Of a stretch of DNA of 64,000 bases, positions 1 through 17,098 are shown piece by piece (the stretch's first letter is position 1; each line of letters starts with the position of its first letter). The notes beneath the pieces were generated by a model. That model had not been told where the DNA came from. It searched no databases and saw only the letters and a program-made list of their open reading frames with translations. A program made the position numbers and the translations under genes. Source of the DNA: Bacilli bacterium (GTDB lineage Bacteria; Bacillota_I; Bacilli_A; RFN20; CAG-826); contig JAGAYY010000025.1 in the NCBI GenBank assembly GCA_017940265.1, forward strand, positions 256,711 through 320,710. The letters run 5' to 3'.

Positions 1-1
1 G

Positions 2-322
2 ATTAATAGTTTTGAAGAATTAACTAAGCGATTAATTGAGATAAGAACCGATGTAGATGATGCTATTAATACATTAGAGCAGGTTCCTAGTACTGGCCCT
101 TCCGAATATGCTATCTATAGGTTCAAGGGAAATAAATCTATATCTATTAAAGACTACTTCGTTGATTCTAATATTTATAATGGGGCTATTTGGGGACCAG
201 AACCAAAATTGATGAGTGAATTAGAGGCTGAAGTAATTATTAAATATTTAGAATTTAGTAATAACGATGAGTATAAATACAGCATCATACATCTGGTACC
301 GGGAGAAACCAAGACTAAATAA
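2..322 (+). CDS. small basic-loop protein, tandem family copy 0 (5'-partial at window edge)
   Basis: Frame open from window edge to TAA 320-322 (own translation; not in ORF track, no Met). Family core AIYRFKGNKSISIKDYF..W.. Confidence 0.45.
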   Translation: MNSFEELTKRLIEIRTDVDDAINTLEQVPSTGPSEYAIYRFKGNKSISIKDYFVDSNIYNGAIWGPEPKLMSELEAEVIIKYLEFSNNDEYKYSIIHLVPGETKTK

Positions 323-512
323 GAAACGACCAATCATCCGAGAATACTACCAACGTAATCTTGATAAGGTTCCGGATTCAAACGCTTATTGGACTACTGA
401 TAAGAGTCGTGCTATGAGATTTAGTGAGGTGGGACTAGCCGATTGTTTTTGGTGGGCCTTAGATTCTATGGACCCATATAATTATGGATATGAAGAAATT
501 TGTGATAGTTAA
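267..512 (+). CDS. small basic-loop protein, family copy 1
   Basis: 81-aa ORF; core YIWYREKPRLNKKRPIIREYY..YWTTDKSRAMRF..GYEEI; overlaps copy 0 by 56 nt. Confidence 0.55.
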   Translation: MSINTASYIWYREKPRLNKKRPIIREYYQRNLDKVPDSNAYWTTDKSRAMRFSEVGLADCFWWALDSMDPYNYGYEEICDS

Positions 513-696
513 AACCAAAGGAAGTAAACGAAAATCTAAGAAAGAATATTTTATAGGAGAATGGCATTTTAGCCCAGATCCTAGAAATGCTACTTTGTTT
601 AACTCTAAGAAAGAGGCCTCTGGTATTAGGTTTAGACTTGAGACCGGAGCTGATACTTCTTGTGAGATCTATAAGATATTAGAATGGGATACCTAG
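484..696 (+). CDS. small basic-loop protein, family copy 2
   Basis: 70-aa ORF; core FVIVKTKGSKRKSKKEYF..RNATLF..EA. Confidence 0.6.
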   Translation: MDMKKFVIVKTKGSKRKSKKEYFIGEWHFSPDPRNATLFNSKKEASGIRFRLETGADTSCEIYKILEWDT

Positions 697-935
697 TCTA
701 TAAGGAGGGTGGTAGAAATAAACTTTCTATAATTCGATTCTACTTCAGGGAGGATACCGCTTCTAACTTGAAGTTTAGATTAACTAGAGAAAGAAAGGAA
801 GCTACTATATTTCCTAACTACGAAACTGCCAATAAAGCTCTCCACGATTATATTACAAAGTGTTTTTGTTTTGGCTGTGTGGATAAACCTGGAACACCAT
901 TTGGAATAGAAGATGAATTTGAGGAAATGGATTAG
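684..935 (+). CDS. small basic-loop protein, family copy 3
   Basis: 83-aa ORF; core LVYKEGGRNKLSIIRFYF..RKEATIF..GIEDEF; 13-nt overlap with copy 2. Confidence 0.6.
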   Translation: MGYLVYKEGGRNKLSIIRFYFREDTASNLKFRLTRERKEATIFPNYETANKALHDYITKCFCFGCVDKPGTPFGIEDEFEEMD

Positions 936-1227
936 TAGGTTTTTCTCTGAATCCCCATCCTTCCCTCCTCCACCATTAATTTCTTATTATATCGTTATCT
1001 ATGTATTAAAAGGACGAAAGAAAAAGTCTAGGAAAAGGTGGTGGTATGCAGGAGAATATAAGGGAGAACCAGTTTGGACAATAGATCAAGACGCTGCTAA
1101 GAAATTTGATGAACATAGTGAACACGGAGAAATCATGTTTATAGTAAAAGACCTATACGCCCGAACTCCGGAAGCCTTAGAGGTTGGTTATGTCAAGTTA
1201 CGCTATCAAGAAAGGACGTGGAAATAA
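913..1227 (+). CDS. small basic-loop protein, family copy 4
   Basis: 104-aa ORF; core IVIYVLKGRKKKSRKRWWY..VWTIDQDAAKKF. Confidence 0.6.
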   Translation: MNLRKWISRFFSESPSFPPPPLISYYIVIYVLKGRKKKSRKRWWYAGEYKGEPVWTIDQDAAKKFDEHSEHGEIMFIVKDLYARTPEALEVGYVKLRYQERTWK

Positions 1228-1360
1228 AAGATGGCCTACTAGGTGGTGGACTAGTAATGGTTGGGGTCCTAGAAGAGAAGCTACCATATATGACTATGAT
1301 TCTGCTCTTCTAATGACATTAATGATACATGATAATTGCCAAGTTTTTAAAGTGGATTAA
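1190..1360 (+). CDS. small basic-loop protein, family copy 5 (56 aa, below ORF-track cutoff)
   Basis: Own translation: MSSYAIKKGRGNKRWPTRWWTSNGWGPRREATIYDYDSALL..*; ATG 1190, TAA 1358-1360; fills the gap between copies 4 and 6 and carries the family motifs. Confidence 0.45.
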   Translation: MSSYAIKKGRGNKRWPTRWWTSNGWGPRREATIYDYDSALLMTLMIHDNCQVFKVD

Positions 1361-1610
1361 GGGACTAAAGAAAAAGAAAGAGCCTACTATAATACATCGA
1401 ACATTCTGGCTTATCCGACTTTCTGGAAATAAACGAAAATCTGGAAAACTATATTATACTAGGGCTGAGAAAAAGTGGGTAGATAAAAATTCAGCTACTA
1501 GATTTTTTAGTCCTAAGGATGCAGAAAATATTACCAAAGCACTTAAACTTATCGGCTATGACTGCAGAGTTGAAGAAGAAATTCAGAATATTCCGATTAA
1601 TAGGAAATAA
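1329..1610 (+). CDS. small basic-loop protein, family copy 6
   Basis: 93-aa ORF; core FWLIRLSGNKRKSGKLYY..NSATRFF..DAENI..GYDCRVEEE. Confidence 0.6.
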   Translation: MIIAKFLKWIKGLKKKKEPTIIHRTFWLIRLSGNKRKSGKLYYTRAEKKWVDKNSATRFFSPKDAENITKALKLIGYDCRVEEEIQNIPINRK

Positions 1611-1815
1611 AAAGAAAAAGAGAAAATTATACTTTGATGCAAGAAACCCAGATATTCCGACTTTTAGTCAAAAAGAATATATATTTACTAGTACTGAATC
1701 AATAGTAAGAAAAGCTGTTGTTAGAATATTAGATTTTCATCCAGAAGCAAAACTAGGATATGAAGAGGTGGATAGTAATGACAACTTGGGGATCACAAAA
1801 GAAAAAGACTCTTGA
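1558..1815 (+). CDS. small basic-loop protein, family copy 7
   Basis: Core FRIFRLIGNKKKKRKLYF..LGYEEV. Longest ORF starts at 1519; the internal ATG at 1558 gives a shorter overlap. Start uncertain. Confidence 0.5.
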   Translation: MTAELKKKFRIFRLIGNKKKKRKLYFDARNPDIPTFSQKEYIFTSTESIVRKAVVRILDFHPEAKLGYEEVDSNDNLGITKEKDS

Positions 1816-1993
1816 GTATATATGTAGAACAGAAGATAATACTGCTTTTACATTAACAAAAGAAAAATCAGAAGCATATTTATTTGATGACTTTAAAGTT
1901 GCGGCTGATCTAAGGGCCAGCATAATGAAACTCTATTATGGAAAACGAGTTATTATCAAAGAAACAGATTTTAATATCATATCGAGGAAATAA
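1760..1993 (+). CDS. small basic-loop protein, family copy 8
   Basis: 77-aa ORF; core WIVMTTWGSQKKKTLEYI..SEAYLF; 56-nt overlap with copy 7. Confidence 0.55.
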   Translation: MKRWIVMTTWGSQKKKTLEYICRTEDNTAFTLTKEKSEAYLFDDFKVAADLRASIMKLYYGKRVIIKETDFNIISRK

Positions 1994-2156
1994 AAAGAGA
2001 TCATTTTCCGGGTATATCCAACATATTGGGCCTCTTAAAACTAAAATAACTAAAGACAGAAAGGAAGCTACTATATTTTCTGATCTTTCCTCCCTGTTTC
2101 TAGCCATCAAAGTAACCCCTGGAAGAACGAAAACAAAAAATTTGAGTGAAAGTTAA
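1938..2156 (+). CDS. small basic-loop protein, family copy 9
   Basis: 72-aa ORF; core ILISYRGNKKRSFSGYI..RKEATIF; 56-nt overlap with copy 8. Confidence 0.55.
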   Translation: MENELLSKKQILISYRGNKKRSFSGYIQHIGPLKTKITKDRKEATIFSDLSSLFLAIKVTPGRTKTKNLSES

Positions 2157-2175
2157 TTCTTTCACTCTTTTATTT
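2144..2175. terminator. bidirectional intrinsic terminator at the convergence of + and - gene trains
   Basis: Perfect 9-bp stem GAGTGAAAG(2144-2152)/CTTTCACTC(2159-2167), loop TTAATT, followed by TTTTATTT and preceded by an A-run. Both converging stop codons lie inside it. Confidence 0.6.
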
Positions 2176-2497
2176 CCACACCAAAATAAAACCACAAGAT
2201 ATACTTGAGCTCAGGAAGTGTAGGATCTTCGGAATAAGGAGATTCTATATATCTTGGAGTATTAATCACTTGATCTAATATTTCATATTTAACCCATCTC
2301 GGACCAAATAACTTCAACCCAGGGAGACTATGAAACAAAGATACTCCCATATACTGAATTCCCTTAAATATTCTAGGACTTAATAGCCTAAACTTTTGAC
2401 CTTTACCTTTTCCAATAATTTCTAGGTAGAGTCTTGGTCTTATTTTAACATAATAGATAATTACTGAACCACATACTATAACCCAATATTTATACAT
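2162..2497 (-). CDS. hypothetical protein with N-terminal hydrophobic segment
   Basis: 111-aa ORF directly downstream of the flotillin gene; N-terminus YWVIVCGSVIIYYV. Confidence 0.5.
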   Translation of the reverse strand: MYKYWVIVCGSVIIYYVKIRPRLYLEIIGKGKGQKFRLLSPRIFKGIQYMGVSLFHSLPGLKLFGPRWVKYEILDQVINTPRYIESPYSEDPTLPELKYILWFYFGVEIKE

Positions 2498-2539
2498 AGA
2501 AAATGAGAGAGTCCTTTTTTTTTGAACCCTCTCATAAAT

Positions 2540-4102
2540 TTATTTAACAACAACGCCAGTATCGACTGAACCATCACCCTCGATCTTAACATTACGATCG
2601 GTTTTAGCAGCGATAGTATTGGTCTTAAGAATGTCGGCCATATCAACACCAGTCACGTCCTTCATAACATCCATGGTCTGTTTAATTACAGAAGGAACAT
2701 TACCTGCAAATCCTGCAGCCTCAGTTCCAGTAGTACCATAAATCTTGATATCACCAATCTTACCCATTGGTTCAGCAATACTTCGTGCAACCTCTGGCAT
2801 AACCTTTTCTGTCATCTTGGTTAGAATATCAATTACAGCGACATGACCATATTTCTCATAGGCTTCTGCTTTCTTCTGCATAGCTTGAGCTTCTGCCTCA
2901 CCCTTAGCCAGGATACCGGCTGCTTCTGCCTCTAATCCTGCTTGTTTAGCCGCAGCCTCAGCTTTACCCTTCGCTTCAATACCTGCAGCTTCCTGAAGAG
3001 CAGAATACTTATCAGCATCAGCTTTAACCTGAATAGCTTTAGCCTCCTGTTCAGCTAAATATGCCTTAGCTTCAGCCTCACGCTTCTGTTGTTCAAGTTT
3101 TGCCTGAGCATCAATCTCTGTCTGATATTTCTTAGCATCAGAGTTTACTTGAGTTTGATACTTTTCAGCATCGGCTTGAGCATTAACCTGGGCCTTAAGT
3201 TCATTTTGCTTAATTTTGATCTTTTCCTCAGAAAGAACTTGTTCACGCTTAGTTTGTTCAATCTGGGCATCAACAGTTTTAGTGTTGATAGTTTTTTGCT
3301 GTTCCTGCTTCTGAATTTCATATGCAGCATCAGCTTCAGCTTTCTTTGTGTCAGAGACCTTTTTAAGATCTGCTTTTTTAATTTCAAGCTCATTATTACG
3401 TTCAGCAATCTCAGTCTCTGTCTTAACTCTCACATCATTTGCTGTTTTCTTTGCTTCCTGTTCAGCAACGGCAATGTCACGTTCTGCATTTGCTTTGGTA
3501 ATAGCTGCATTCTTTCGGATAGCATAAGTATTATCAGCACCTAAGTTCTCGATAAGTTTATTTGAATCAGTTATGTTCTGAATATTACAAGAAATAACTT
3601 CAAGACCAAGTTTTGCCATATCCTTAGCAGCTTTTGCCTGAATTTCATCTGAGAACTTATCCCTGTCCGTGATTAAATTTTGGAGGGTTATGGCGCCAAC
3701 CACCTCTCTCATATTTCCCTCTAATGAATCCTTAATCTCAGAAGCAATCTGGGATGGATTCATGTTAAGAAAGTTTTTAGCGGCTAATCTTGTACCAGCT
3801 CCATCAGGTAAAGCTCTTACTTTGCACACAGCATCAACCATAACATCAATAAAATCATGCGTTGGTACTGGGATAGAAGTTTTTACATCCACAGAAACCT
3901 GGCCAAGAAACACCTTATCAAGACGTTCCAAGATAGGAATCTTAAATCCACCTGTACCAATAAGAACTCGAGGTTCTTTTTTAAGACCTGATAAAATGTA
4001 GGCATAAGATGGAGGAGCCTTAACATACATACTGAAGGCTAGTACCACCAATAGAACTACAACAATTGCAATTCCAATTAATACTAAATTTGAAGTAAAC
4101 AT
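2540..4102 (-). CDS. flotillin-like SPFH/Band-7 membrane protein
   Basis: 520 aa. N-terminal TM helix, SPFH core (..ILSGLKKEPRVLIGTGGFKIPILERL..GLEVISCNIQNITD..), long Ala/Glu/Lys/Gln coiled coil (AEAEAKA.., GLEAEAAGILAKGEAEAQA), C-terminal flotillin-type tail. Confidence 0.9.
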   Translation of the reverse strand: MFTSNLVLIGIAIVVVLLVVLAFSMYVKAPPSYAYILSGLKKEPRVLIGTGGFKIPILERLDKVFLGQVSVDVKTSIPVPTHDFIDVMVDAVCKVRALPDGAGTRLAAKNFLNMNPSQIASEIKDSLEGNMREVVGAITLQNLITDRDKFSDEIQAKAAKDMAKLGLEVISCNIQNITDSNKLIENLGADNTYAIRKNAAITKANAERDIAVAEQEAKKTANDVRVKTETEIAERNNELEIKKADLKKVSDTKKAEADAAYEIQKQEQQKTINTKTVDAQIEQTKREQVLSEEKIKIKQNELKAQVNAQADAEKYQTQVNSDAKKYQTEIDAQAKLEQQKREAEAKAYLAEQEAKAIQVKADADKYSALQEAAGIEAKGKAEAAAKQAGLEAEAAGILAKGEAEAQAMQKKAEAYEKYGHVAVIDILTKMTEKVMPEVARSIAEPMGKIGDIKIYGTTGTEAAGFAGNVPSVIKQTMDVMKDVTGVDMADILKTNTIAAKTDRNVKIEGDGSVDTGVVVK

Positions 4103-4132
4103 AATTTTTAGTTTATTTGTTTAATAATACAT

Positions 4133-4420
4133 TTATAAGGAATATACCCTTTCTCCAATTTTAAGAACATAATAAATCTTTCCAGGTTCGGCTCCCCAAT
4201 CTGGATTTCCGGATTTCACTTCTATTCCGTTAAGTTTAAATCTCATTCGTCTTGATAGGTCACTGCTCTTAGGATAACCAAGAGTAAATTCAACGAAGTC
4301 ATAGTGTTTTCCAACTAGTCTCTTCGTCCAATATTCTGTTATTTCTCGGTACTCTTCTATTTTGATACCAGCCTCAATTAATCGATACCATATTTCTTTA
4401 AGTGATAAGTATAATATCAT
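4133..4420 (-). CDS. hypothetical protein (possible ASCH/PUA-like fold)
   Basis: 95-aa ORF; LSLKEIWYRLIEAGIKIEEYRE..YW resembles the ASCH N-terminal pattern; weak, by eye. Confidence 0.55.
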   Translation of the reverse strand: MILYLSLKEIWYRLIEAGIKIEEYREITEYWTKRLVGKHYDFVEFTLGYPKSSDLSRRMRFKLNGIEVKSGNPDWGAEPGKIYYVLKIGERVYSL

Positions 4421-4604
4421 AATGATCTACAAAATTATCATTATCTAGGTCCTTAATAGCTTCTTCCTCAGTATCAAATCTACAGGCACAAACATGATGA
4501 CTGGTAAGATTAACGAAACAATATTTACCAGAGGCACGATCAAACATAATCTCTGTTTCTCGCACAGATCCATCCTTTCTAGTGACTATTATTCTTCTCG
4601 GCAT
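4398..4604 (-). CDS. hypothetical protein
   Basis: 68-aa ORF in overlapping minus-strand gene train. Confidence 0.5.
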   Translation of the reverse strand: MPRRIIVTRKDGSVRETEIMFDRASGKYCFVNLTSHHVCACRFDTEEEAIKDLDNDNFVDHYDIILIT

Positions 4605-5217
4605 CTTTTCCCTCTAGGATTAGTTGTATATCGAATGAACTCTTCCAAGCTAGATCTTCTGGTATATCACTAGCACTTACACTTAGTTCACCAGTAAATT
4701 TATCCGTTGAAACCCACACACCTTCCCGAGGATAATCATCATTCTTTTCAAAGTAGAGATTTATTTCGTAGTCATCATCATAAATTTCCGGATCTATAAT
4801 TCCAGCACGATCTGTAGTATATCCAAGTACATCAAGAACAGGGTACAACTCCTCTATAACCCACTTCATATTCTTTGCATGTGCCATAGCGATTTTATAT
4901 TCCTGCAAGATCGGATTACAGACTACCTTAATAGTTTCTTCGAGTATATCAAGACTATATTTATTACGTATGTCCGGCTCCTTAACTAATAGAATTCCCG
5001 GACTTCCAAATTCATCATCATTTGTATAGAAAGTGTTATTTGAGATAAAGATGCTATCTACCTCCCCTGATGTATTATCTACATTAATCCATACAAACCT
5101 ATCATCCTTCCCCTCATAATAAAAAGAAGTGAATTCCTCTTCTATATCAGTATTATCTGGAGAAGGTTTATATCCGTATAACCTAAGTATCTTTTCGTAT
5201 GTATTTATAGACTGCAT
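4579..5217 (-). CDS. hypothetical acidic protein
   Basis: 212-aa ORF in gene train, no recognisable motif. Confidence 0.7.
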   Translation of the reverse strand: MQSINTYEKILRLYGYKPSPDNTDIEEEFTSFYYEGKDDRFVWINVDNTSGEVDSIFISNNTFYTNDDEFGSPGILLVKEPDIRNKYSLDILEETIKVVCNPILQEYKIAMAHAKNMKWVIEELYPVLDVLGYTTDRAGIIDPEIYDDDYEINLYFEKNDDYPREGVWVSTDKFTGELSVSASDIPEDLAWKSSFDIQLILEGKDAEKNNSH

Positions 5218-5614
5218 AATGTTCTAATAAAGGTAATCCATTTATTCTCTGTTTCAGTATCGACTTAAGAACTTTATCCGGATTTCTGAAGTGAATACAT
5301 TTTCCACGTTCTTTATCTGTTATCTCACTACCAACGTTTATACTAATTGAATCAATCTCCTTAACCGGTATTTTAGATGCAGTAGTATATTTATTTTTCC
5401 TGATAAAATCTAATACTGCTGTATATCTGAAATTTATAGTAATCATGGAGGGTATCCAAGAAGTATCTACCTGATCTAATGCTTCCCAGATAGTTTTCCC
5501 CTCAGACATACTTTCCTTGAGATTACTAACTAATACATGAGGGTCGATTCTTCTTGTATCAGGTAACTCAAGATAAAACCAAAGAGACTTTCCTATAAAT
5601 CCAGAATCAATCAT
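5183..5614 (-). CDS. hypothetical protein
   Basis: 143-aa ORF in gene train. Confidence 0.65.
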   Translation of the reverse strand: MIDSGFIGKSLWFYLELPDTRRIDPHVLVSNLKESMSEGKTIWEALDQVDTSWIPSMITINFRYTAVLDFIRKNKYTTASKIPVKEIDSISINVGSEITDKERGKCIHFRNPDKVLKSILKQRINGLPLLEHYAVYKYIRKDT

Positions 5615-6015
5615 AAGGCATCAATCGCATTAATCAATATTTCTCGCTCATCTTTTCCTATATAAGCGTCTGTCACAATTTTCTTTAATCGTTTCTTAAG
5701 AACCTCGAGGTCTTGGATAGGGCACATCTTTATTTCATGTGTCTTCTCATCCATATAGTAACCGAGAGATTCCAACAAAGATTTCATATCATCTACCTGT
5801 TCCTCTTTAGCTACTCTCCAAAAATGAGGCCAAGTATCATCATGTCTTTTAATTCCCCACTTAGTAATTCGTGTGACAGAATCCATTTCAATTCCTGGCG
5901 GCGGATATTCACATCTAGATCCCAAGCCTTCATAGATAGCATAGTACGGTTCCCCAAAACTATCGTTATCTCTGTTCACTAAGATCTCACCTTTCTTATA
6001 ACTTAGAGGCCTCAT
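5611..6015 (-). CDS. hypothetical protein, tandem paralog 1 of 3
   Basis: N-terminus YKKGEILV..YAIYEG and C-terminus LKKRLKKIV..EREILINAIDAL are shared with the next two ORFs. Confidence 0.7.
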   Translation of the reverse strand: MRPLSYKKGEILVNRDNDSFGEPYYAIYEGLGSRCEYPPPGIEMDSVTRITKWGIKRHDDTWPHFWRVAKEEQVDDMKSLLESLGYYMDEKTHEIKMCPIQDLEVLKKRLKKIVTDAYIGKDEREILINAIDAL

Positions 6016-6410
6016 ACAAGACTATCGATTGCATCTGTTAATATAGCTTTATCGGTTTCAGACCTGTCAGACTCGACAACAAGTTCTAATAGTTTATTCT
6101 TAAGAACTTCCATATCGAAAATTCTATTAAGTCTAAGTTCACCTTTTAGATTTAAGTGATAACCCATTTCTGTCAAAATATCAAGGGCAGTTTCTAATTC
6201 CATACCCTTAGCACTTTTCCATTGATGGTTCCAGATTTTCATATCTCTCCAGACCCTACCAACAGAATCGAGTAAATATGCAGAACTTAGCATTTTCCCA
6301 TGAGCTTCACCAATTTCCTCTTGATAGATACAAAACCTAGGCCCTGTTGTTCTCGGAGGGTCAGCTGGTTGGATCAATATCTCTCCCTTCCTGAATTTTG
6401 CTGATTCCAT
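6012..6410 (-). CDS. hypothetical protein, tandem paralog 2 of 3
   Basis: FRKGEILI..FCIYQE..LKNKLLELV..DKAILTDAIDSL. Confidence 0.7.
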   Translation of the reverse strand: MESAKFRKGEILIQPADPPRTTGPRFCIYQEEIGEAHGKMLSSAYLLDSVGRVWRDMKIWNHQWKSAKGMELETALDILTEMGYHLNLKGELRLNRIFDMEVLKNKLLELVVESDRSETDKAILTDAIDSLV

Positions 6411-6813
6411 CTAGTAAGTATTGTTTTTCTGTCTCTTCAATATCAGAACACAAGATAGCTTCAAATAATCTAGACTTAAGGTCCTTGGGAATACCAGGTC
6501 TAGGAATACTTCGATATTCTCCCTCAATCCATACCTTCCCTTGATCCTTAAGATATCTATTTATAGTTTCTACCTCTCCTGGACAAGCTAACTTCCAATT
6601 TGGGACATAAGTACTCATCCATTCCTGTCTACCTCCATCCCAAATATGATCTACCCAACCACGATTCTTTTCTTTTTTACTGTAACCCTGAAAAATACCA
6701 AGAACATGGATTGGATTCTCAATACCAAGATCTATATCAGCAGAAACATAATCACCTTTCTTGAACCCTGTATGTACTGTAGACATATACACTCTCAATT
6801 TCTGGTTCATCAT
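6361..6813 (-). CDS. hypothetical protein, tandem paralog 3 of 3
   Basis: FKKGDYV..LGIFQG..LKSRLFEAI..EKQYLLDGISKI. Confidence 0.65.
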   Translation of the reverse strand: MMNQKLRVYMSTVHTGFKKGDYVSADIDLGIENPIHVLGIFQGYSKKEKNRGWVDHIWDGGRQEWMSTYVPNWKLACPGEVETINRYLKDQGKVWIEGEYRSIPRPGIPKDLKSRLFEAILCSDIEETEKQYLLDGISKIQEGRDIDPTS

Positions 6814-7348
6814 AGAGATAGTCTGTCATGGTGTTTTGGTCACCTATATAAGATCCCCATTTCTCCCATCTCCAACCATCTCTGGGTGGTTCATCTTTCT
6901 TGCGGATCTCCGACATTATAATAACGAATTCAAAACCCTTCCATTTTTCCAAGGCCTTAATTCTTTTATCACGTTCGAGGATTTGCTGGTAATTATCACA
7001 TACACCATAAGGATAGGAGATCCATACCTTACCTTTCTCGTGCTCTCCAAGTCTTTTAATGAAACCAGTACTAATACCTAGGAGACTAGATAATTTACCC
7101 AGGTTCCTTTTGGTGGGTAGATATTCACAGTTCACTAAATGATATGTTCGCTCAAGAAACATAGGCTTATTAACATCCCAATATTCATATATCCCCGGGG
7201 CTAACTCTTTAAAAACGTCACCTATCTTGAGATCCCGCCACATCCTATATACATCTTCTCCATAATCTCGCCTGAAGTCTTCTAATAATTCAGTGCGACC
7301 AGGAGAACTAACATAATACTCATTCGAATCAAAATATAATTTTTTCAT
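6752..7348 (-). CDS. hypothetical protein
   Basis: Longest ORF runs to 7471 but overlaps the upstream gene. ATG at 7348 (MKKLYFDSNEYY..) follows the stop of the 7375-7686 gene. Confidence 0.6.
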   Translation of the reverse strand: MKKLYFDSNEYYVSSPGRTELLEDFRRDYGEDVYRMWRDLKIGDVFKELAPGIYEYWDVNKPMFLERTYHLVNCEYLPTKRNLGKLSSLLGISTGFIKRLGEHEKGKVWISYPYGVCDNYQQILERDKRIKALEKWKGFEFVIIMSEIRKKDEPPRDGWRWEKWGSYIGDQNTMTDYLYDEPEIESVYVYSTYRVQER

Positions 7349-7374
7349 ATCTAATAATAAGGAAAATAAAAGAA

Positions 7375-7686
7375 CTAGATAACAACATAATCGTTTTCTA
7401 GTTCTATTTCCAAGTATATGTAATAACATCCCGGTAGATCCTCTAGAATCCAAGTTCCTTTTCCAGGACATGAATCTCCGAGAGGCGTCCGAATTATTAT
7501 ACCATCTACCATTCCATTTGGCGTTCGGATTTTATCCATATAAGCATATTCACCAGCAAACTCCAGGATCTCATCATAGTTATCGCCAGTAAATTTAATT
7601 GCCCTATGAACTTTTCCTTTCTTCTTATGATTCCAAGTAGGTCTTAATCGAATCACACCACTACTATTGTTCTTCGTTAAGTTCAA
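7375..7686 (-). CDS. hypothetical protein
   Basis: 103-aa ORF in gene train. Confidence 0.6.
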   Translation of the reverse strand: MNLTKNNSSGVIRLRPTWNHKKKGKVHRAIKFTGDNYDEILEFAGEYAYMDKIRTPNGMVDGIIIRTPLGDSCPGKGTWILEDLPGCYYIYLEIELENDYVVI

Positions 7687-8071
7687 GTTGTTCAGTTTTA
7701 ATTACACTACAATACATAATAGGTTTTCCTGGATGTATGATTATCTCTGAGTTCCCTAAGTTTATTAAATGAGTAGTTAGTTCACCATCAGCAGTAAATA
7801 GACAATCCATTAATAAACACGTATTCCTATTCCCAGAATGTTTTATTATTGAGTAGGCATCATTTGACGGTAGAGTAGCTTGAGTAGGGATAAACCTATA
7901 CAAATGAAATCCAGGAAAAACAAGATCCGACGGAATAATTATATCAGAACACGGAAGGAGGACAGATTCAGGAAGATCATCTGGATAATACACTTTAAGC
8001 ACTACGCCAGATCCAAATATCAGGACTGGATCTCTTGTGTTTCTAATCTTACGGTAACTTAAAGAAATCAT
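7664..8071 (-). CDS. hypothetical protein (weak dUTPase/dCTP-deaminase-like pattern)
   Basis: 135 aa; ..ADGELTTHLINLGNSEIIIHPGKPIMYCSVI resembles the dUTPase beta-barrel motif; weak. Confidence 0.55.
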   Translation of the reverse strand: MISLSYRKIRNTRDPVLIFGSGVVLKVYYPDDLPESVLLPCSDIIIPSDLVFPGFHLYRFIPTQATLPSNDAYSIIKHSGNRNTCLLMDCLFTADGELTTHLINLGNSEIIIHPGKPIMYCSVIKTEQLELNEEQ

Positions 8072-8471
8072 ATACTTCCTCCCAATCTACTTCAGGGTCA
8101 AAACCAAATTTATCATCTATTCCAATATTGAAGTAGAGCTTATCGGAGAAACACTGTAATTCCGTATTTTGTACCTCGGGATTTTCGTTTATCCAATCCA
8201 CCTTGATACCATCTACCTCCAGTCTCTCCTTGTATTTCATTAGCTGATCAGTGTAAGATGAGGACCATAGAATTATTCTTATCTCTTCTCTCCTCGACAT
8301 ATTCCTTAATGTATCGAGGGCTAACGGATAATACTCGTAGGTTTCTATCCTTTCATAGGATGGTCTGAATATAGTTCCATGTATATCAACCAAGACATAT
8401 ATCCTATCCCATCCTTTCTTGGCGGCTCTTTTATACGCTGCACTAAATGCATTCACCAGGTTCATACTCAA
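8049..8471 (-). CDS. hypothetical protein (possible HAD-like nucleotidase)
   Basis: 140 aa; YVLVDIHGTIF resembles a degenerate DxDxT motif I; weak. Confidence 0.55.
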   Translation of the reverse strand: MSMNLVNAFSAAYKRAAKKGWDRIYVLVDIHGTIFRPSYERIETYEYYPLALDTLRNMSRREEIRIILWSSSYTDQLMKYKERLEVDGIKVDWINENPEVQNTELQCFSDKLYFNIGIDDKFGFDPEVDWEEVYDFFKLP

Positions 8472-8682
8472 CTATTACTTTTGTTTTGATCTTACCTTTC
8501 TGTATGTATAAGTAATCAGATATCGACTGCGCTTCTCTATAACTACCATACTTAGCTGAATCATCTTTATTCGGGGTCCAAACAGGATCTTGACTATTAA
8601 CATTCATATCAAAACCTGCAAAATATATTTTTCTTTTTCCGAACTTTTTATTTCTAGGCTTCAACCGAATTATACAATCCAT
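8443..8682 (-). CDS. small basic-loop protein, minus-strand family copy M1
   Basis: CIIRLKPRNKKFGKRKIYF..VWTPNKDDSAKY..EA; same family as 2-2156. Confidence 0.6.
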   Translation of the reverse strand: MDCIIRLKPRNKKFGKRKIYFAGFDMNVNSQDPVWTPNKDDSAKYGSYREAQSISDYLYIQKGKIKTKVIVEYEPGECI

Positions 8683-8933
8683 GCTTCAACTCCCTTAGGA
8701 TATTCGATTATCTCTGGTCTCTTAACGCCATCAATCTTTGTTTGAAGTATTTCCAATGATCTAGAGACTTCTCCATGATTATCATATAACCTCATTTTCC
8801 TGGGATCTATAGTCCATCTAGCGGTAAAATTCAGGTTTAGTAAAAAGGGCCCATGAAAGTCTACCAAGTATATTACCTTAGACTTCTTTTTGTTTCCCAT
8901 CCGACTCCTTATGTACCAGATCTTTTTCTTCAT
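8670..8933 (-). CDS. small basic-loop protein, copy M2
   Basis: IWYIRSRMGNKKKSKVIYL..RWTIDPRKMRLY; 13-nt overlap with M1. Confidence 0.6.
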   Translation of the reverse strand: MKKKIWYIRSRMGNKKKSKVIYLVDFHGPFLLNLNFTARWTIDPRKMRLYDNHGEVSRSLEILQTKIDGVKRPEIIEYPKGVEAWIV

Positions 8934-9138
8934 ACGATGTTACAAAAGAGCCCTTAATCCCAAGAATTCCCATAAGTACCATAGTATCTAGGTGACCTTT
9001 AGCTATAACCAAAGAATCGAAAGTGATATTGGTAGTTCCTTGAAAAATAGGAATAAACTTACCACTATCTGGATCTCCCCATATACCATTAAAATATTGT
9101 ATCCTTCTCTTGTGCTTCCTAGCAATTACATATTTCAA
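8878..9138 (-). CDS. small basic-loop protein, copy M3 (divergent)
   Basis: YVIARKHKRRIQYF..; 56-nt overlap with M2. Confidence 0.5.
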   Translation of the reverse strand: MKYVIARKHKRRIQYFNGIWGDPDSGKFIPIFQGTTNITFDSLVIAKGHLDTMVLMGILGIKGSFVTSYEEKDLVHKESDGKQKEV

Positions 9139-9356
9139 CAGTAACGATCCTCCTCTATTTTGATGGGGTATAATCCGAAGATTCCAAGTTCACATATAAC
9201 ACCCAAGGATAGTCTATAATCAGGACATCTATACGCCTCTTGAAAGGAACTAGTCCACTTCACTACTGGTTCTGGACTCTTTAGGTAACGTTTCGATTTC
9301 TTTTTCTGATATCCGCTTCTTACGATTAACCAATTTAACATACAGCCATTTTCCAC
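9135..9356 (-). CDS. small basic-loop protein, copy M4
   Basis: WLIVRSGYQKKKSKRYL..KWTSSFQEAY; alternative start at 9341. Confidence 0.55.
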   Translation of the reverse strand: MENGCMLNWLIVRSGYQKKKSKRYLKSPEPVVKWTSSFQEAYRCPDYRLSLGVICELGIFGLYPIKIEEDRYC

Positions 9357-9456
9357 CAGTATAACCTAACCTAGCAAGATTAAGTTTATCGGTGATCCAA
9401 GAATAACACCAAAAAACTATTATTCCTGACAGAAAACCTACTAGAAACCAAATCAA
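9250..9456 (-). CDS. possible small membrane protein
   Basis: 68-aa ORF; N-terminal TM (IWFLVGFLSGIIVFWCY). Overlaps M4 by about 100 nt in another frame, so extent is doubtful. Confidence 0.35.
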   Translation of the reverse strand: MIWFLVGFLSGIIVFWCYSWITDKLNLARLGYTGGKWLYVKLVNRKKRISEKEIETLPKESRTSSEVD

Positions 9457-9821
9457 TGTTCTGCCTCAATTATATAGGGATAAAGACCAAACACCGGAAA
9501 AGAATATCCTCTAGTCTTTATCTTATAAGTTTTTCCTATCTCTAACGTACCAAATGCCTTAGAAGACATTAAACCAGATGGTGTTATCTCATAGGTTCCT
9601 TTATCTGTTCCTACCAGGTATTTGTAGGATAAGGATTTATTATCCTTACTACCTGTTAATTCTTGTTGAGCATTAACAGATATAACCTTAGCTAATACAA
9701 TATCCTCCTTAGTAAATTCAAGAATAGCAGAACAAATAATAGCTACCAGAAGTCCAAGTACTAATAATCCTTTAGTCGCTTTCATATTTTTCGAGTTCTT
9801 TATTAATTTCAGATAATCCAT
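9453..9821 (-). CDS. membrane-anchored hypothetical protein
   Basis: 122 aa; signal-anchor GLLVLGLLVAIICSAIL. Confidence 0.65.
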   Translation of the reverse strand: MDYLKLIKNSKNMKATKGLLVLGLLVAIICSAILEFTKEDIVLAKVISVNAQQELTGSKDNKSLSYKYLVGTDKGTYEITPSGLMSSKAFGTLEIGKTYKIKTRGYSFPVFGLYPYIIEAEH

Positions 9822-9884
9822 AATCTTCTGCAGCTCTTACACGACCGAGTTGTATAAGTCTGTGAATAATTCCACGTTTTTCTT

Positions 9885-10157
9885 TTAAGTGTTCGTATCT
9901 TGACATAATCCAATATTATAATGTTCTCTCAATAGGTCAAGCGTATCCTGAACATGGGTAGGTATACTGACTAGTGGTTTAAGGATTGGATCGATGTCGT
10001 CTATATGAACATCAACTACCTCTCCATCCTCACGTAGAACAGTTACATTATTTGTATGATATCCCAGTCCCATTAATACATAGGTTGAACCAAGAATTCT
10101 ATGTCTAACTTTTACTCTGAATGGAAGCAATAAAGCTAATAAATCTTTCTTACTCAT
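9885..10157 (-). CDS. hypothetical protein
   Basis: 90-aa ORF. Confidence 0.6.
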   Translation of the reverse strand: MSKKDLLALLLPFRVKVRHRILGSTYVLMGLGYHTNNVTVLREDGEVVDVHIDDIDPILKPLVSIPTHVQDTLDLLREHYNIGLCQDTNT

Positions 10158-10209
10158 TTAACATTTTTATCCATCTCTATTAATAAGGAAAAAGAAGGGA
10201 GAAAGAAAC

Positions 10210-10575
10210 CTAAACTTCTTCCTCTCCTTTCTGAATCCATTCTACTATAATTCCATCTCGTTCCGGACATCTATAATTACACTCATGACACTTGATTTCT
10301 CTAGTACAATTCTTTCGGTAAATACAGAAAACTTTTCCTCCTTCAAGCCTCTCTAACTCAAGACGCCGTTTTCTGAGTTTCTCCGCTGACCAGAAATACC
10401 ATATGACAGAGACTATTCCAAATAGATTAATCACACGGGTTAACCAAAAATTTGTTATTATTAGGCTACCGATAGAATACCCTAAGAAAATAACCTCGAA
10501 CGATGTAATAAATAGACGTTCTTGAAAAGCGAACTTAACTCCTGCTTCTAAGCTCTTCCACTTTTCCGAAAGCAT
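10210..10575 (-). CDS. membrane protein with C-terminal Cys cluster
   Basis: Two hydrophobic helices, then CIYRKNCTREIKCHECNYRCPE. Longest ORF starts at 10623; ATG 10575 reduces overlap. Confidence 0.5.
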   Translation of the reverse strand: MLSEKWKSLEAGVKFAFQERLFITSFEVIFLGYSIGSLIITNFWLTRVINLFGIVSVIWYFWSAEKLRKRRLELERLEGGKVFCIYRKNCTREIKCHECNYRCPERDGIIVEWIQKGEEEV

Positions 10576-10822
10576 TGATGAGCCATTCCTTAAGGGTTTT
10601 CTTGAATTCTCCGTTTGTATCATTGACTAAATCATACAGAAAACCGCTCGGAATATAAGCTATCTGTCTGAAAAAGCATCTTCCATCTGCCATCATCCTG
10701 TAGTCACCGTATAAGTCTCTTGGTTTCTTTTCCAGGAGGCCAAGAGTCTTCACACACAACATATGATCATAGCCTATTAAGGTAACCGATATACCACTAG
10801 TCCCTGTCATCTTAATTCTCAT
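10535..10822 (-). CDS. hypothetical protein
   Basis: 95-aa ORF. Confidence 0.5.
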   Translation of the reverse strand: MRIKMTGTSGISVTLIGYDHMLCVKTLGLLEKKPRDLYGDYRMMADGRCFFRQIAYIPSGFLYDLVNDTNGEFKKTLKEWLINAFGKVEELRSRS

Positions 10823-11310
10823 AGGTCATTAACATCTATGTAGTCAATACCATAGTTTTCCGCACACTTCAGATCAGAGTCAGAGAATTGGCCTGGTTTA
10901 CCTGAGGCATCACCAATCATTAACATCTCGGGTTTAGAAACTACAATTCCTAAGGTTGGTAGAATCTTAAGACAGGTATGATCCAACATCCCCGGGTTTG
11001 GTTTTCGATAAGGATCAGTCTTGGAGTTTCTTGGACAATATACCCATCGGACTGGAACCCCTAGGTACTCTTCGAAGGCTCTCACCAGGTACTCGATCTT
11101 GCCCTTAACCCAATTTTCATGATTAACTTTACCGATTGCTATACCTCCCTGATTTGTTACTATAACCAATACTTCAGGACTCATTTCCCTGATTTTATCC
11201 AAGACATCAAACTTAATTTTCATATCCCAAATACCCTTAGGGAATGAACTACCAGTGAGGGTATCTATCAAAGTACCGTCTAGGTCCGCAAATACAACTT
11301 TCTTTTTCAT
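10819..11310 (-). CDS. HAD-superfamily (subfamily IIIA-type) phosphatase, polynucleotide-3'-phosphatase/GmhB-like
   Basis: Motif I FADLDGTL, motif II VTNQGGI, Lys motif YRKPNPGML, motif IV IGDASG..DSD. Confidence 0.8.
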   Translation of the reverse strand: MKKKVVFADLDGTLIDTLTGSSFPKGIWDMKIKFDVLDKIREMSPEVLVIVTNQGGIAIGKVNHENWVKGKIEYLVRAFEEYLGVPVRWVYCPRNSKTDPYRKPNPGMLDHTCLKILPTLGIVVSKPEMLMIGDASGKPGQFSDSDLKCAENYGIDYIDVNDL

Positions 11311-11576
11311 CTTCTTAAAAATAATTTAATTAATGGGAGACTATCTTCCTGGATACCTAACTTATGTAACATATAAGCCTCCTGTTCAGCCATAAATAAT
11401 AACAATACTAAAAATACACTAGCCCAACATAGCAGATAAATAAATCCCATTTGTAATTTATCACTCAAGGTTGGACATTTCTCTTCAGTTCTTCCCATTA
11501 GCCTAACCATTAATACACAGAGCAGGCTAACTATTCCAGGCATTTCTAAATATTGAAACCACCAAGTTATTTCCAT
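11307..11576 (-). CDS. small membrane protein
   Basis: 89 aa, 2-3 hydrophobic helices. Confidence 0.5.
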   Translation of the reverse strand: MEITWWFQYLEMPGIVSLLCVLMVRLMGRTEEKCPTLSDKLQMGFIYLLCWASVFLVLLLFMAEQEAYMLHKLGIQEDSLPLIKLFLRR

Positions 11577-11845
11577 ACTATTTCTTTTCGTAGATAACCC
11601 TTTCCACTACAGACAGGACACGTATCGGAAAGTTCGATATCTTCCATCTTACATGTTAATTCATTCCTTATGCTCTCCACTCGATGATTAATTCTTCCGG
11701 TACCATAACAATTATCACACCTCTTCCGGATACCATCGAGTTCCTCTTCATAGGCTCGACAGGCTTCTTCGTTCCTGAATTCCTTACCGTCCTTAGCTAC
11801 ATAGATCGTTTCCTTGATTACCCTTTCTTTTTCGTAAGTCCGCAT
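11567..11845 (-). CDS. DnaJ-type zinc-finger protein
   Basis: Two CxxCxGxG units: CDNCYGTG and CPVCSGKG. Confidence 0.65.
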   Translation of the reverse strand: MRTYEKERVIKETIYVAKDGKEFRNEEACRAYEEELDGIRKRCDNCYGTGRINHRVESIRNELTCKMEDIELSDTCPVCSGKGYLRKEIVWK

Positions 11846-12065
11846 ATTTATTTCCTATATTAATAACTTTGACTAGGGCAGATGGGATTCTTATCCATTC
11901 ACTATCTCTTTTTGCTTCAACCACTTCTTCTCCATGTAATACACCAGGATAAGATCTAATGTCTGTTACTTCCCATAAATCACCTGGCTTGGTTGAAATT
12001 GAGAATCTAGACTTATTAGCTTCTATATACCTGAAGGCCTCGTGAGTTATGATCATTCCTCTCAT
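11793..12065 (-). CDS. hypothetical protein
   Basis: 90-aa ORF. Confidence 0.5.
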   Translation of the reverse strand: MRGMIITHEAFRYIEANKSRFSISTKPGDLWEVTDIRSYPGVLHGEEVVEAKRDSEWIRIPSALVKVINIGNKYADLRKRKGNQGNDLCS

Positions 12066-14546: not shown

Positions 14547-16589
14547 TCATTTTCTTGATATTATTTCAAATCCATCTTTAACTCCAGAATCAGTAATTAC
14601 CTTAACTACTTTGAGATTAAAATAGTTTTCTAAATTTTTTGCCTTAGCGACTGATTTATACCCTAATTTTTCATAGATATCCTTTAGTGTAGATTTTATA
14701 TAAACATAAGAATATCTACTACCAACCTCAAAAGTAGAATACACAAGGTCCTCTAATTCTTCCTGCTTTTCTGAATTTTGACTTATTCTATTCCACTCTC
14801 GTTCTATATCAGCTTCTAGATATTTGAGCGCTTTCATCCGTTCTGTTCCGAAAGCTAGGTAATAATCCTTAAATTTACCAGGGAGTCTATCTAAGAACTT
14901 TCCCATATTCTCGGGATCAAGACTAACCTCTATATTATGTATAAACTTAATTTTATCTGGAAATGTCGTTAGTCCATTGAATTCCACTAATAAATCTGAT
15001 ATTCTACTATCCTGGGCTAGGAATCCAGCTTCTCCTAAGGCATTATACACACTGAATCTATCTTTATAATCTACTTGCTGGATATCGAAAGCTCTCATCT
15101 CCGATACCAACATTAGGTTATTAAATACCGGGAGAAGATCAGAACCCGCATGATGATTAACGGCAACATAGTCATTTAAGTAGTGAGATAACTTAATTTC
15201 ACTCTCGTATTTCTTAGCCAATGAATGTCTTTTAGTAGGGTCAGCATCTCTGTATATGTCTAAGAGGTCATAACTAGCTTGTTTTTTCTCTTCTAGGCGT
15301 TTATCAAAAACCTCCTTCGTCTGTTCCTCCTCTGTTGTTTTAACTACCAGATAAGCAGAATTCTTCCAAGGGTTAATATCGAGTCTTTGTCTACCCATAA
15401 TCTGTTCTAAGTCCATACTAATATCAACACTAAGACAATCTATATTACTATCACAGAAAATGAAAGTTCTAGCATTGGTACTATAGAAATCAGCACCGAG
15501 GTATACTGTTCTAGTACAAAAAGTAAACATCTTATGAGGTTCACCTTGTTTAGGAATAGAGCCAATAGCATCAATAGTCCCTGCCTTAGCCCTTTTCATT
15601 GACGGTCGGCCTAATTCGGAAAGAGCCTTATTGAATGCCTGCTTAATTAATTTATTATTTTCGAGAGTCTTAGCACATAGAACGTTACATTGATCTGGAG
15701 TTAATCTATTGTTGATGATAGCCCTAACAATAGCTTTAACTGAATTAACATATATAACTGCCTCCTTAGATACTACTTCATAGGGTCGGCCATCTTCTCC
15801 TATATATCTTCTCCTCTCATACTCCCCACTCAGGTATGGTTGGATTATTTTATTGATCTCTTCATTCAGTCCACGCTTAGTATATCTAACCTCAATCTTC
15901 GGACTAATAACTCGATCCGGATCTTCTTTACTCCAATTAAGTTCATAGTATGGAAGATTCTTAAATTCATCCAGCATATCTAAGTATTCATCTAACATAG
16001 GAGTAGCGGATACAAAGCAAACCTTCTGAATACCTAGGAGCTGATATAAGAGTTCAAGTTCTGTATGAGATTTGAAGCGTGAATCAATGAAGATGCTTTG
16101 AAACTCATCCACTACTATATAGAAATCTTCTAAGACTCCGAGTTCAACTAATACTTCCTTGATATGACGGAATGAATCATAGGTAACTAGAATCTTAGCA
16201 GCTTTTCTATTAAATCTGCATTTCCGGACATAATCTCTGGCTCTATCCTTAAACTCCAAGACTCTTTCAATACTTGGGACTGGTGGATCTACTATTTTTG
16301 CACCTTTAGTCATAGTACTAATATCCTTGTCATATCCAACAACGGATTCAATGTCATTTCTTGCATAGAATACTTCTCCTTGATGTTGATCCTCCTTATT
16401 CTCTAAGAGAAACCGGCGGGGACTACATACGACAACATTAAGTCCGCACCTGATACAATACTCTGTGAAACCGCAACCAGTCAGTGTCTTGTTCAAAATA
16501 TGAGGAGAGTTAAAGTTTTCTAATCCATATTCACTCCACTCTCCTATGTACCTTATTCCTTTTGGTACTACAATCTCTTTTCTATTCAT
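14547..16589 (-). CDS. SF2 helicase-like protein, paralog 1 (Walker A Lys replaced)
   Basis: Motif order GCGFTEY (I, no Lys), CSPRRFLLEN (Ia), VVDEFQS (II), VSATP (III), QIMGRQR (VI). The 718-aa track ORF uses a TTG at 16703. The ATG at 16589 matches the paralog N-terminus, and the 16590-16703 stretch is conserved as DNA with a stop-containing stretch upstream of paralog 2. Confidence 0.8.
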   Translation of the reverse strand: MNRKEIVVPKGIRYIGEWSEYGLENFNSPHILNKTLTGCGFTEYCIRCGLNVVVCSPRRFLLENKEDQHQGEVFYARNDIESVVGYDKDISTMTKGAKIVDPPVPSIERVLEFKDRARDYVRKCRFNRKAAKILVTYDSFRHIKEVLVELGVLEDFYIVVDEFQSIFIDSRFKSHTELELLYQLLGIQKVCFVSATPMLDEYLDMLDEFKNLPYYELNWSKEDPDRVISPKIEVRYTKRGLNEEINKIIQPYLSGEYERRRYIGEDGRPYEVVSKEAVIYVNSVKAIVRAIINNRLTPDQCNVLCAKTLENNKLIKQAFNKALSELGRPSMKRAKAGTIDAIGSIPKQGEPHKMFTFCTRTVYLGADFYSTNARTFIFCDSNIDCLSVDISMDLEQIMGRQRLDINPWKNSAYLVVKTTEEEQTKEVFDKRLEEKKQASYDLLDIYRDADPTKRHSLAKKYESEIKLSHYLNDYVAVNHHAGSDLLPVFNNLMLVSEMRAFDIQQVDYKDRFSVYNALGEAGFLAQDSRISDLLVEFNGLTTFPDKIKFIHNIEVSLDPENMGKFLDRLPGKFKDYYLAFGTERMKALKYLEADIEREWNRISQNSEKQEELEDLVYSTFEVGSRYSYVYIKSTLKDIYEKLGYKSVAKAKNLENYFNLKVVKVITDSGVKDGFEIISRK

Positions 16590-17098
16590 GTTTTTAAATT
16601 TTATTATTCTATCCACCCTTGTATTTTTGGGCGGAATCAGGTCTTTATTCGATAGTAAGGATTTGAGAGCTTCTGAAGTGTGAAACTTCGATTTTATTTT
16701 CAATTTTCAAACATATCCTTATATGAATGTTTGGGTTCAAAAAAGTCGAAAAAATGTATAGGTTATATTGTTAAAACAAAAGGAATCTCGCCTTGGCTTT
16801 CGCCTCGGCTCGAGTCCATTCAAGGGATCTTCGGCTAAAGCCTTCGATCACATTCGGTCGGTTCCCTCCCTCACCTTGAATATAGTATTAGGTCTTGTAA
16901 TATCCTTTACTTCAAGTCTTTGAAGTAAAGATTCTGGTCCGGGCAACGACGAGCTTTAGCGAGGAGGGGCTAGGTGGGCGGACCAGAATGACGAAGTCTT
17001 TGATAACCCTAGAATCATATCAAATAAGTTATCATAGATAACACCCTAGATTCATTTATATACAAAGACAAATACTATAAGCAGAAGCTCTCAACTTC
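16590..17098 (-). promoter_or_regulatory. long structured upstream/leader region of SF2-like paralog 1
   Basis: No credible ORF. GC-rich island 16781-16990 with perfect 11-bp hairpins (16905-16930 and 16931-16989). Block 16655-16686 is conserved with 42708-42737. Confidence 0.45.

Follow-up and report, generated by a model that had tools for sequence, protein, structure and literature searches.

Bacterial flotillins such as Bacillus subtilis FloT (YuaG) and Escherichia coli YqiK combine a membrane anchor, an SPFH domain, a coiled coil rich in glutamate and alanine and a C-terminal domain, and FloT is encoded beside the NfeD-type gene yuaF. The human flotillin-1/flotillin-2 44-mer cage (9l3g, 9bq2) shows the same collinear order of SPFH domain, coiled coil and C-terminal region, although the human proteins are hetero-oligomers anchored by acylation or by a hairpin. 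Here we analysed a 64,000-nucleotide stretch of DNA (the window; C18:256711-320710) from contig C18 of a 1.73-Mb, 63-contig metagenome-assembled genome (MAG) filed under Bacilli, which contains a flotillin gene of 520 amino acids (2540–4102, minus strand). The encoded protein shares the parts of FloT and YqiK and the collinear order of the human flotillins. In contrast to the human proteins, it is the product of a single gene and carries an N-terminal hydrophobic helix; unlike FloT, it has no yuaF-type partner gene. Our analysis suggests that this is probably a functional flotillin of bacterial origin, carried as an optional gene by a jumbo phage of gut Bacteroidales, whose cages would sustain or reorganize the infected-cell membrane.

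SPFH genes have already been annotated in T4-like, RaK2-like, Vi01-like and crAss-like phages (PMC1524935, PMC7760394, PMC13239085). Large virulent phages with an annotated SPFH or Band-7 gene include 44RR, Aeh1, RB43, RaK2-like Erwinia jumbo phages, GIB1, Xanthomonas phage X1, Vibrio phage KIT04 and csAssE-Sib (PMC1524935, PMC7760394, PMC13239085, PMC13384950). Most of these genes encode short SPFH-only or lipoprotein forms, or proteins of about 25% identity (the GenBank ‘flotillin family protein’ entries of Vibrio phage KIT04 and csAssE-Sib are each ~25% identical to the C18 flotillin), whereas C18 encodes a full-length flotillin. In RaK2-like phages, the SPFH protein was detected in virions, whereas the C18 gene lies in the non-structural arm of the genome. 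Flotillin relatives at 38–70% identity are also found on 47 viral contigs in IMG/VR and, given these contigs and the annotated SPFH genes in several phage groups, the view taken in the initial annotation that flotillins are not standard phage equipment overstates their rarity. Literature searches returned no functional study of a phage SPFH protein. What is new here is a flotillin that appears to be host-derived, repeatedly exchanged, and optional yet conserved, without a partner gene, together with a corrected bin assignment for its carrier.

Architecture of the C18 flotillin

The phage open reading frame (ORF) is an intact full-length flotillin with an ATG start, in which every part of the family is present. 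At its N terminus lies a hydrophobic membrane anchor (residues 1–25; 4028–4102, with all parts of the gene on the minus strand); residues ~5–25 are strongly hydrophobic, with a 19-residue Kyte–Doolittle maximum of 3.31 at residues 6–24. The anchor is kept in all 14 phage and bacterial flotillins that we aligned, although its sequence is conserved at just 34–41%. It is followed by the SPFH/Band_7 domain (residues 28–207; 3482–4021), recovered with Pfam PF01145 at E = 1.1e-19 (71.6 bits against a gathering score of 23.6), and by a coiled-coil region (residues 208–415; 2858–3481) composed of 21% alanine, 15% lysine, 14% glutamate and 11% glutamine, which aligns with the coiled coils of flotillin-1. 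The Flot C-terminal oligomerization domain (residues 380–480; 2663–2965) matched PF15975 at E = 1e-11 (45.4 bits against a gathering score of 27), and the protein ends in a variable tail (residues 481–520; 2543–2662) with 52–57% identity to relatives. The complete bacterial-type flotillin described in the initial annotation is therefore borne out in all of its named parts by Pfam domains, hydrophobic anchor, composition and the alignment to flotillin-1/2, and the Band_7 and Flot profiles were both recovered above their gathering scores.

Alignment with human flotillin-1 and flotillin-2, known from the cryo-EM cages 9l3g and 9bq2, was collinear (E = 7e-46 and 6e-40, respectively) and spanned the SPFH domain, the coiled coil and the C-terminal region. 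By analogy, the C18 flotillin is predicted to assemble into a dome-shaped oligomer that sits on the cytoplasmic side of the membrane. The NCBIfam FloT model NF058507 aligned to residues 45–388 with 224.7 bits, far under its equivalog cut-off of 700, which places the phage protein in the flotillin family but not among FloT equivalogs. The match to QmcA was weak (E = 8e-5), and a search of PHROGs returned no family for the flotillin.

Exchange of flotillins between Bacteroidales and phages

More than 7,700 proteins matched the phage flotillin, the best 120 of them at 70–90% identity. Among named genomes, identity was 52–59% for flotillins of Bacteroidales and ~50% for those of Lachnospiraceae and Treponema. 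We read the genomic context of nine relatives, defining a context as phage-like where many short genes without Pfam families were accompanied by flanking genes with homologues elsewhere on C18. Loci were typed by flank homology to C18 without overlaps, by gene-length statistics calibrated on known cases and by Pfam contexts; typing by BLAST of the flanks against the non-C18 contigs of the bin was dropped, as this is a small Bacilli bin without nuo genes and antisense ORFs gave spurious matches. Phage-like contexts surrounded the relatives P0003 (84% identical; 94-kb contig with DNA_pol_A and ClpP), P0025 (82%; 152 kb), P0037 (79%; 299 kb), P0043 (76%; 224 kb, with a phage lysozyme) and P0066 (72%; 314 kb, with Tad2-like and NADAR genes). 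Bacterial contexts were found for P0047 (76%; DNA polymerase III delta-prime, GldH, RecA and HflX), P0058 (74%; directly following the nuo operon, with Fur and a protein secreted by the type IX secretion system in the vicinity), P0045 (74%; A2M, an SDF transporter and RuvA; named Paludibacteraceae by NCBI) and P0053 (phosphomannose isomerase and peptidase C1), and these four chromosomal flotillins share 74–76% identity with the phage protein. Separately, members of the P0005 cluster (82% identical to the phage flotillin) lie on contigs of 714,857 and 463,177 bp, which are either mega-phages or bacterial chromosomes.

The chromosomal flotillins of Paludibacteraceae-like Bacteroidales (for example in the MAGs GCA_017550335.1, GCA_024401615.1 and GCA_045641065.1), named ‘flotillin family protein’ by NCBI, resemble the C18 copy in architecture, length (516–531 amino acids) and full-length identity (74–76%). 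Like it, they are single genes without an NfeD neighbour, and they fall into the same well-supported clade. They differ in their surroundings, being placed among the housekeeping genes nuo, recA, ruvA and gldH, whereas the C18 copy ends a phage operon among ORFans.

In a FastTree phylogeny of 132 dereplicated sequences, all matches of 65–90% identity fell into one supported clade, with phage and bacterial copies mixed. A careful maximum-likelihood tree (IQ-TREE, LG+C20) of 32 context-verified copies required at least 6 changes of the phage/bacterium label. Starred branches force at least 4 of these changes, and a single origin was seen in none of the bootstrap trees. Within the 14-member clade of the phage flotillin, approximately unbiased tests rejected monophyly of the 10 phage copies (P = 0.004) and of the 4 bacterial copies (P = 0.013). 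The closest kin of the C18 flotillin were the phage copies L010, L012 and L014, with the bacterial pair L147/L149 as the sister group. These phylogenies indicate that flotillin genes have been exchanged several times between Bacteroidales and their large phages.

The direction of transfer was assessed from G+C content at third codon positions (GC3). At bacterial loci, the flotillin matched its flanks (0.68 versus 0.70, 0.38 versus 0.38 and 0.43 versus 0.49), while at most phage loci it exceeded them (0.34 versus 0.20, 0.33 versus 0.19, 0.38 versus 0.16 and 0.28 versus 0.17). A composition that is foreign in most phages and native in bacteria suggests capture by a phage from a bacterium, and thus points to movement of flotillin from bacteria into phages. 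In the window, the flotillin has ameliorated to the phage’s own value (0.28 versus 0.31). Synonymous sites were saturated against every known bacterial copy, indicating that the capture was not very recent. The phylogeny against Bacteroidota flotillins suggested in the initial annotation places the phage gene in a clade shared with Paludibacteraceae-like Bacteroidales.

Selection on the phage flotillins

The reading frame was intact in every flotillin copy examined, and pairwise dN/dS (ω) among flotillins ranged from 0.03 to 0.12. For the phage pair L001/L101, which is unsaturated, dN was 0.026 and dS 0.248, giving an ω of 0.105. These values indicate that the flotillin is kept under purifying selection. 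The identical protein, in the same flanking context, recurs on 13 contigs of up to 394 kb, which come from at least 5 samples. No residue in the SPFH and coiled-coil regions separates phage from bacterial flotillins, and the SPFH domain of the C18 flotillin shows about equal identity to bacterial (0.81) and to phage (0.83) copies; there is therefore no sign of neofunctionalization.

In these respects, the C18 flotillin resembles host-derived auxiliary genes of phages, of which cyanophage psbA is an example. Such genes are likewise host-like, repeatedly acquired, patchy in distribution and under purifying selection, and are presumed to sustain a host function. The nearest cellular relatives of the C18 flotillin are Bacteroidales genes, among which it is nested in the tree, as expected of a host-derived accessory gene. 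The difference lies in the product, since psbA-type genes encode a metabolic enzyme, whereas flotillin is a structural membrane scaffold.

Distribution within the phage clade

Five near relatives of C18 from IMG/VR were searched with the flotillin protein as query and with the Band_7 profile. G006 and G007 (capsid 86% identical to C18 in both; completeness of 92% and 93%, respectively) and G009 (capsid 73% identical; completeness of 100%, with direct terminal repeats (DTRs)) yielded no SPFH gene. G008 (capsid 80% identical; completeness of 100%, with DTRs), a genome of 400,901 bp, encodes a 705-amino-acid SPFH protein that is 27% identical to the C18 flotillin (L230:589-2706, minus strand). 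This protein combines an N-terminal anchor and an SPFH domain with a charged coiled coil of very great length, and matches Band_7 only, without a Flot domain. G010 (capsid 85% identical; completeness of 64%) carries a flotillin of another lineage, 56% identical to that of C18 and located ~137 kb from the capsid gene, as against ~52 kb in C18. The G010-type flotillin is common on phage-sized contigs of ~387 kb and is 64–67% identical to proteins that bear the NCBI names of Alistipes sp. and Prevotella sp. flotillins. A single phage clade with capsids of 73–86% identity thus holds three distinct SPFH scaffolds, those of C18, G010 and G008. Their independent capture suggests a real but conditional benefit. 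A conditional benefit during infection is also suggested by a host-like flotillin that is repeatedly exchanged and maintained by purifying selection, although sister phages manage without it.

The flotillin also appears to be mobile relative to the rest of the genome. A DNA search with window positions 1–12000 gave no match in G006 or G007, with G010 as the positive control, which places the flotillin in a variable accessory region. Conversely, in the phages represented by L012 and L014, the other genes shared with C18 are 29–49% identical, whereas the flotillins are 79–82% identical; near-identical flotillins in such distant phages suggest that the history of the flotillin is decoupled from that of the phage backbone. 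A helicase-like gene (14547–16703, minus strand) was considered as a synteny anchor and proved unusable, with 6–10 copies per relative genome. In G006–G010, copies of this family are 38–48% identical, and several contain 1–2 in-frame TAA codons and one contains a TAG; these stops suggest introns, recoding or decay.

Absence of the gene from three of the five near relatives, and the lack of a DNA match there for the 12-kb variable region, would also fit a neutral passenger, that is, a gene gained by illegitimate recombination, useless to the phage and in the process of being lost. We consider this very unlikely, and the data argue against it: reading frames are intact, ω is ~0.1 between two phage copies, GC3 has ameliorated (0.28 versus 0.31), the identical protein recurs in at least five samples, and three SPFH scaffolds were captured independently in one clade. 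The initial annotation had reasoned that absence from all relatives would mark a recent passenger. Absence was found in three of the five near relatives, which makes the gene accessory; purifying selection, amelioration and stability across samples speak against a mere recent passenger.

The same patchy, moron-like distribution, together with the position of the gene as the last of an operon, next to terminators, would be compatible with a role in conflict, whereby the flotillin would stabilize or repair the membrane and so keep out superinfecting phages or weaken abortive-infection effectors that act on the membrane. In membrane repair, SPFH proteins serve as the link between PspA and the membrane (PMC8581546), and phage lysis is delayed by DynA, a dynamin with a genetic link to flotillin (PMC8844932). 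However, PADLOC-DB 2.0 contains no defence-system family matching the flotillin at E ≤ 0.01, nor is the flotillin accompanied by an effector or sensor gene. Moreover, the sequence is host-like and diverges slowly and uniformly (ω of 0.03–0.12), without the rapid diversification usual for conflict genes, and we regard such a role as quite unlikely.

Genes accompanying flotillin in related phages

A gene of the Bax1-I/YccA family (Pfam E = 6.5e-47) directly follows the flotillin in the L012/L013/L014 lineage and only there. C18 has no Bax1-I gene, the sole copy in the assembly being located on the bacterial contig C36. FtsH of E. coli is inhibited by YccA, which binds both FtsH and HflKC, and the flotillins of B. 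subtilis also interact with FtsH. The pairing therefore bears on an alternative in which the phage flotillin acts like HflK/C by caging or recruiting FtsH or other clients, altering membrane-protein turnover; as a result, phage membrane proteins could be protected, holin action could be delayed or host stress signalling could be altered. The E. coli HflK/HflC–FtsH–YccA system resembles the phage case in its inner-membrane SPFH cage and in the YccA-family gene that follows flotillin in L012 and L014, and the HflK/C analogy has been raised for a phage SPFH domain in a Crassvirales preprint (10.64898/2026.08.21.746148). Nevertheless, the pairing is confined to one sub-lineage among 92 dereplicated loci and is missing from C18, and HflK/HflC belong to another SPFH subfamily: the C18 protein is of the flotillin and not of the HflK/C type, as the poor QmcA score illustrates. 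Control of clients in this manner is thus an unlikely explanation for the C18 gene. Neither it nor a role in conflict is separated by the data from the reading that we favour, a functional flotillin sustaining or reorganizing the infected-cell membrane.

Other gene orders were observed around flotillins of this family. In L012:8001-15345 (299 kb) and L014:8001-12964 (152 kb), the flotillin and the Bax1-I/YccA-like gene are followed by a class-I release factor (PCRF/RF-1) and the peptidyl-tRNA hydrolase PTH2. Adenylosuccinate synthetase is next after PTH2 in this block, and L014 also carries an IS605 OrfB/TnpB element. In L001 and L101, which are MT835492-type phages of 94–181 kb from human faeces, the flotillin (67–69% identical) is always followed by a 677-amino-acid and then a 122-amino-acid protein.

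The carrier contig and its bin

Contig C18 is 376,162 bp long and encodes 8 tRNA genes; its first 141 nucleotides are repeated at the end, indicating that it closes into a circle. Within the window, the gene at 56164–57624 matches a putative major capsid protein of Escherichia phage vB_EcoM_IME392 (31.5% identity over 194 amino acids, E = 1e-6). This capsid-like gene has 96 relatives in IMG/VR at 63–86% identity, many on contigs of 355–401 kb, and two of the relatives, G008 and G009, have DTRs and a CheckV completeness of 100%. Elsewhere on the contig, the protein encoded at 369104–370498 matches tail-fibre PHROGs, and the genes flanking the flotillin are short, as is typical of phages. A PHROGs search assigned almost no families among the large C18 genes. 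Although the set of hallmark genes is incomplete, the phage identity of C18 is well supported by a circular contig of 376 kb, by genes of capsid-like and tail-fibre type and by ~100 relatives in IMG/VR, and the flotillin is phage-encoded as first proposed.

The opposite view, that the gene belongs to bacterial DNA on a chimaeric contig, a megaplasmid or a chromosome fragment, could draw on the presence of the contig in a bacterial MAG, on the three terminase Pfam models without a match and on the lack of a PHROG or Pfam family for most genes. It is extremely unlikely, since the contig is circular, 13 contigs that were assembled independently share its junctions, and the capsid-like gene with its 96 IMG/VR relatives (two with DTRs and 100% CheckV completeness), the tail-fibre match and the short phage-type flanking genes are all present. 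Furthermore, the Bacilli flotillin of the bin itself is just 38% identical to the phage protein.

The SPFH protein on contig C13 of the bin is 99% identical to an NCBI MAG protein named ‘Bacilli bacterium’. As the bacterium of the bin is thus a member of the Bacilli whose own flotillin shares just 38% identity with that of the phage, C18 is probably a jumbo phage mis-binned into a Bacilli MAG. Related phage contigs (L029, L045 and L019) have been deposited in ‘Mycoplasmatota’ (one of 370,971 bp) and ‘Paludibacteraceae’ MAGs, and low-GC jumbo phages appear to be systematically mis-binned.

C18 also carries a second, unrelated SPFH gene on the minus strand (C18:145,6xx-146,5xx; locus L005), ~111 kb before the window. 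It encodes 281 amino acids, with an N-terminal anchor and a Band_7 match at E = 8e-21. No match to it was found in G006–G010, in a search run without a positive control.

Local gene neighbourhood

The start of the flotillin gene is separated by 30 nucleotides from an upstream gene of 95 amino acids (4133–4420, minus strand), an arrangement that is the same on 13 contigs, and the two genes are inferred to form one transcription unit. A homologue of the upstream gene (36% identical) lies ~7 kb from the flotillin in L016. On the other side, 5 nucleotides past the flotillin stop codon, a terminator-like hairpin on the minus strand (2503–2535) has a 12-bp stem and an A9 loop and is followed by TTT; it folds at −15.9 kcal/mol (z = −5.42), a value equalled by none of 200 shuffles. 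The terminator scanner has a loop limit of 8, so this hairpin lay outside its reach. The flotillin thus has a strong hairpin at its 3′ side, yet only 30 nucleotides upstream without a recognized promoter, and no match to the Bacteroidota promoter motif TTTG-N17-21-TAnnTTTG was found, where 1.7 were expected.

Downstream lies an ORF of 111 amino acids (2162–2497, minus strand) without a Pfam family. Only two relatives (84% and 41% identical) were found among 1.84 billion representatives, and no homologue stands beside the flotillins of other phages; judged by these searches, it is an ORFan and neither an NfeD-type gene nor a conserved flotillin partner. More generally, no gene for an NfeD-type small membrane protein adjoins the flotillin, and its neighbours have no Pfam family. 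A bidirectional terminator with a 9-bp stem, detected by the scan on both strands (2144–2167), lies where the plus and minus arms converge, in agreement with the initial description of the flotillin as the last large gene of the minus arm. Its companion statement that many small transmembrane proteins are encoded nearby finds little backing: out of 27 further ORFs in the surrounding 12 kb, only 4 have a strongly hydrophobic segment, and none of these adjoins the flotillin. The roles put forward in the initial annotation, namely scaffolding of such proteins, modification of host membrane physiology and interference with membrane-based defence, are hypothetical; no group of transmembrane genes adjoins the flotillin, and PADLOC gave no match.

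At least 8 small ORFs of 70–104 amino acids flank the flotillin on both sides (484–2156, plus strand, and 8443–9356, minus strand). They share an N-terminal basic motif, G-x(0-2)-[KR][KR][KR], for example GNKKKK, GRKKK or GSKRK, and by this motif look like a tandem paralogous family.

Discussion

We propose, with moderate confidence as regards mechanism, that the flotillin gene would be the last to be transcribed in the non-structural minus-strand arm and that its product would insert into the host inner membrane by means of the N-terminal anchor. There, alone or together with the host flotillin, it may build dome-shaped oligomeric cages like those of other family members, which would top up or replace the host scaffold. 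Membrane organization, fluidity and integrity, and hence energy supply and the function of membrane proteins, could in this way last through the long infection of a giant phage.

Several observations weigh against a host-derived, functional flotillin in a Bacteroidales phage. Three of the five near relatives, two of which (G006 and G007) are only 92–93% complete, have no SPFH gene of any kind, which shows that flotillin is dispensable for this type of phage. All-against-all clustering of the flanks of 92 dereplicated loci revealed no recurring neighbour of flotillin in phages or in Bacteroidales chromosomes. The basal branches of the 14-member clade are phage copies and the polarity of individual transfers is unrooted, so some transfers may have run from phage to bacterium. 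No terminase was matched on C18 with Pfam PF03237, PF17289 or PF03354, and the capsid-like protein, modelled with AlphaFold from 16 aligned sequences, reached a mean pLDDT of only 49, too poor for a fold search. Finally, the proposed Bacteroidales host of C18 is suggested by the kinship of its flotillin, while the bin is a Bacilli MAG.

A more far-reaching interpretation gives flotillin cages a specific value as a host factor for the giant phages that infect gut Bacteroidales. The phages would use them to build or stabilize a membrane platform or compartment for replication, assembly or timed lysis, and each phage would need a flotillin that suits the membrane of its own host. This is prompted by the independent capture of at least three SPFH scaffolds in one clade and by near-identical copies in unrelated jumbo phages and mega-phages. 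We think it improbable; if true, it would be the bacterial-virus counterpart of the use of rafts and flotillins by eukaryotic viruses.

For genome annotation, low-GC jumbo-phage contigs filed in Bacilli, Mycoplasmatota and Paludibacteraceae MAGs can introduce ‘flotillin’ and other phage genes into bacterial pangenomes. For the protein family, bacterial flotillins are poorly understood and SPFH proteins recur in large phages, and the C18 case offers a clean comparative handle. Natural pairs of phages with and without flotillin, together with host and phage proteins of ~75% identity, may thus give access to the behaviour of flotillin cages under viral stress.

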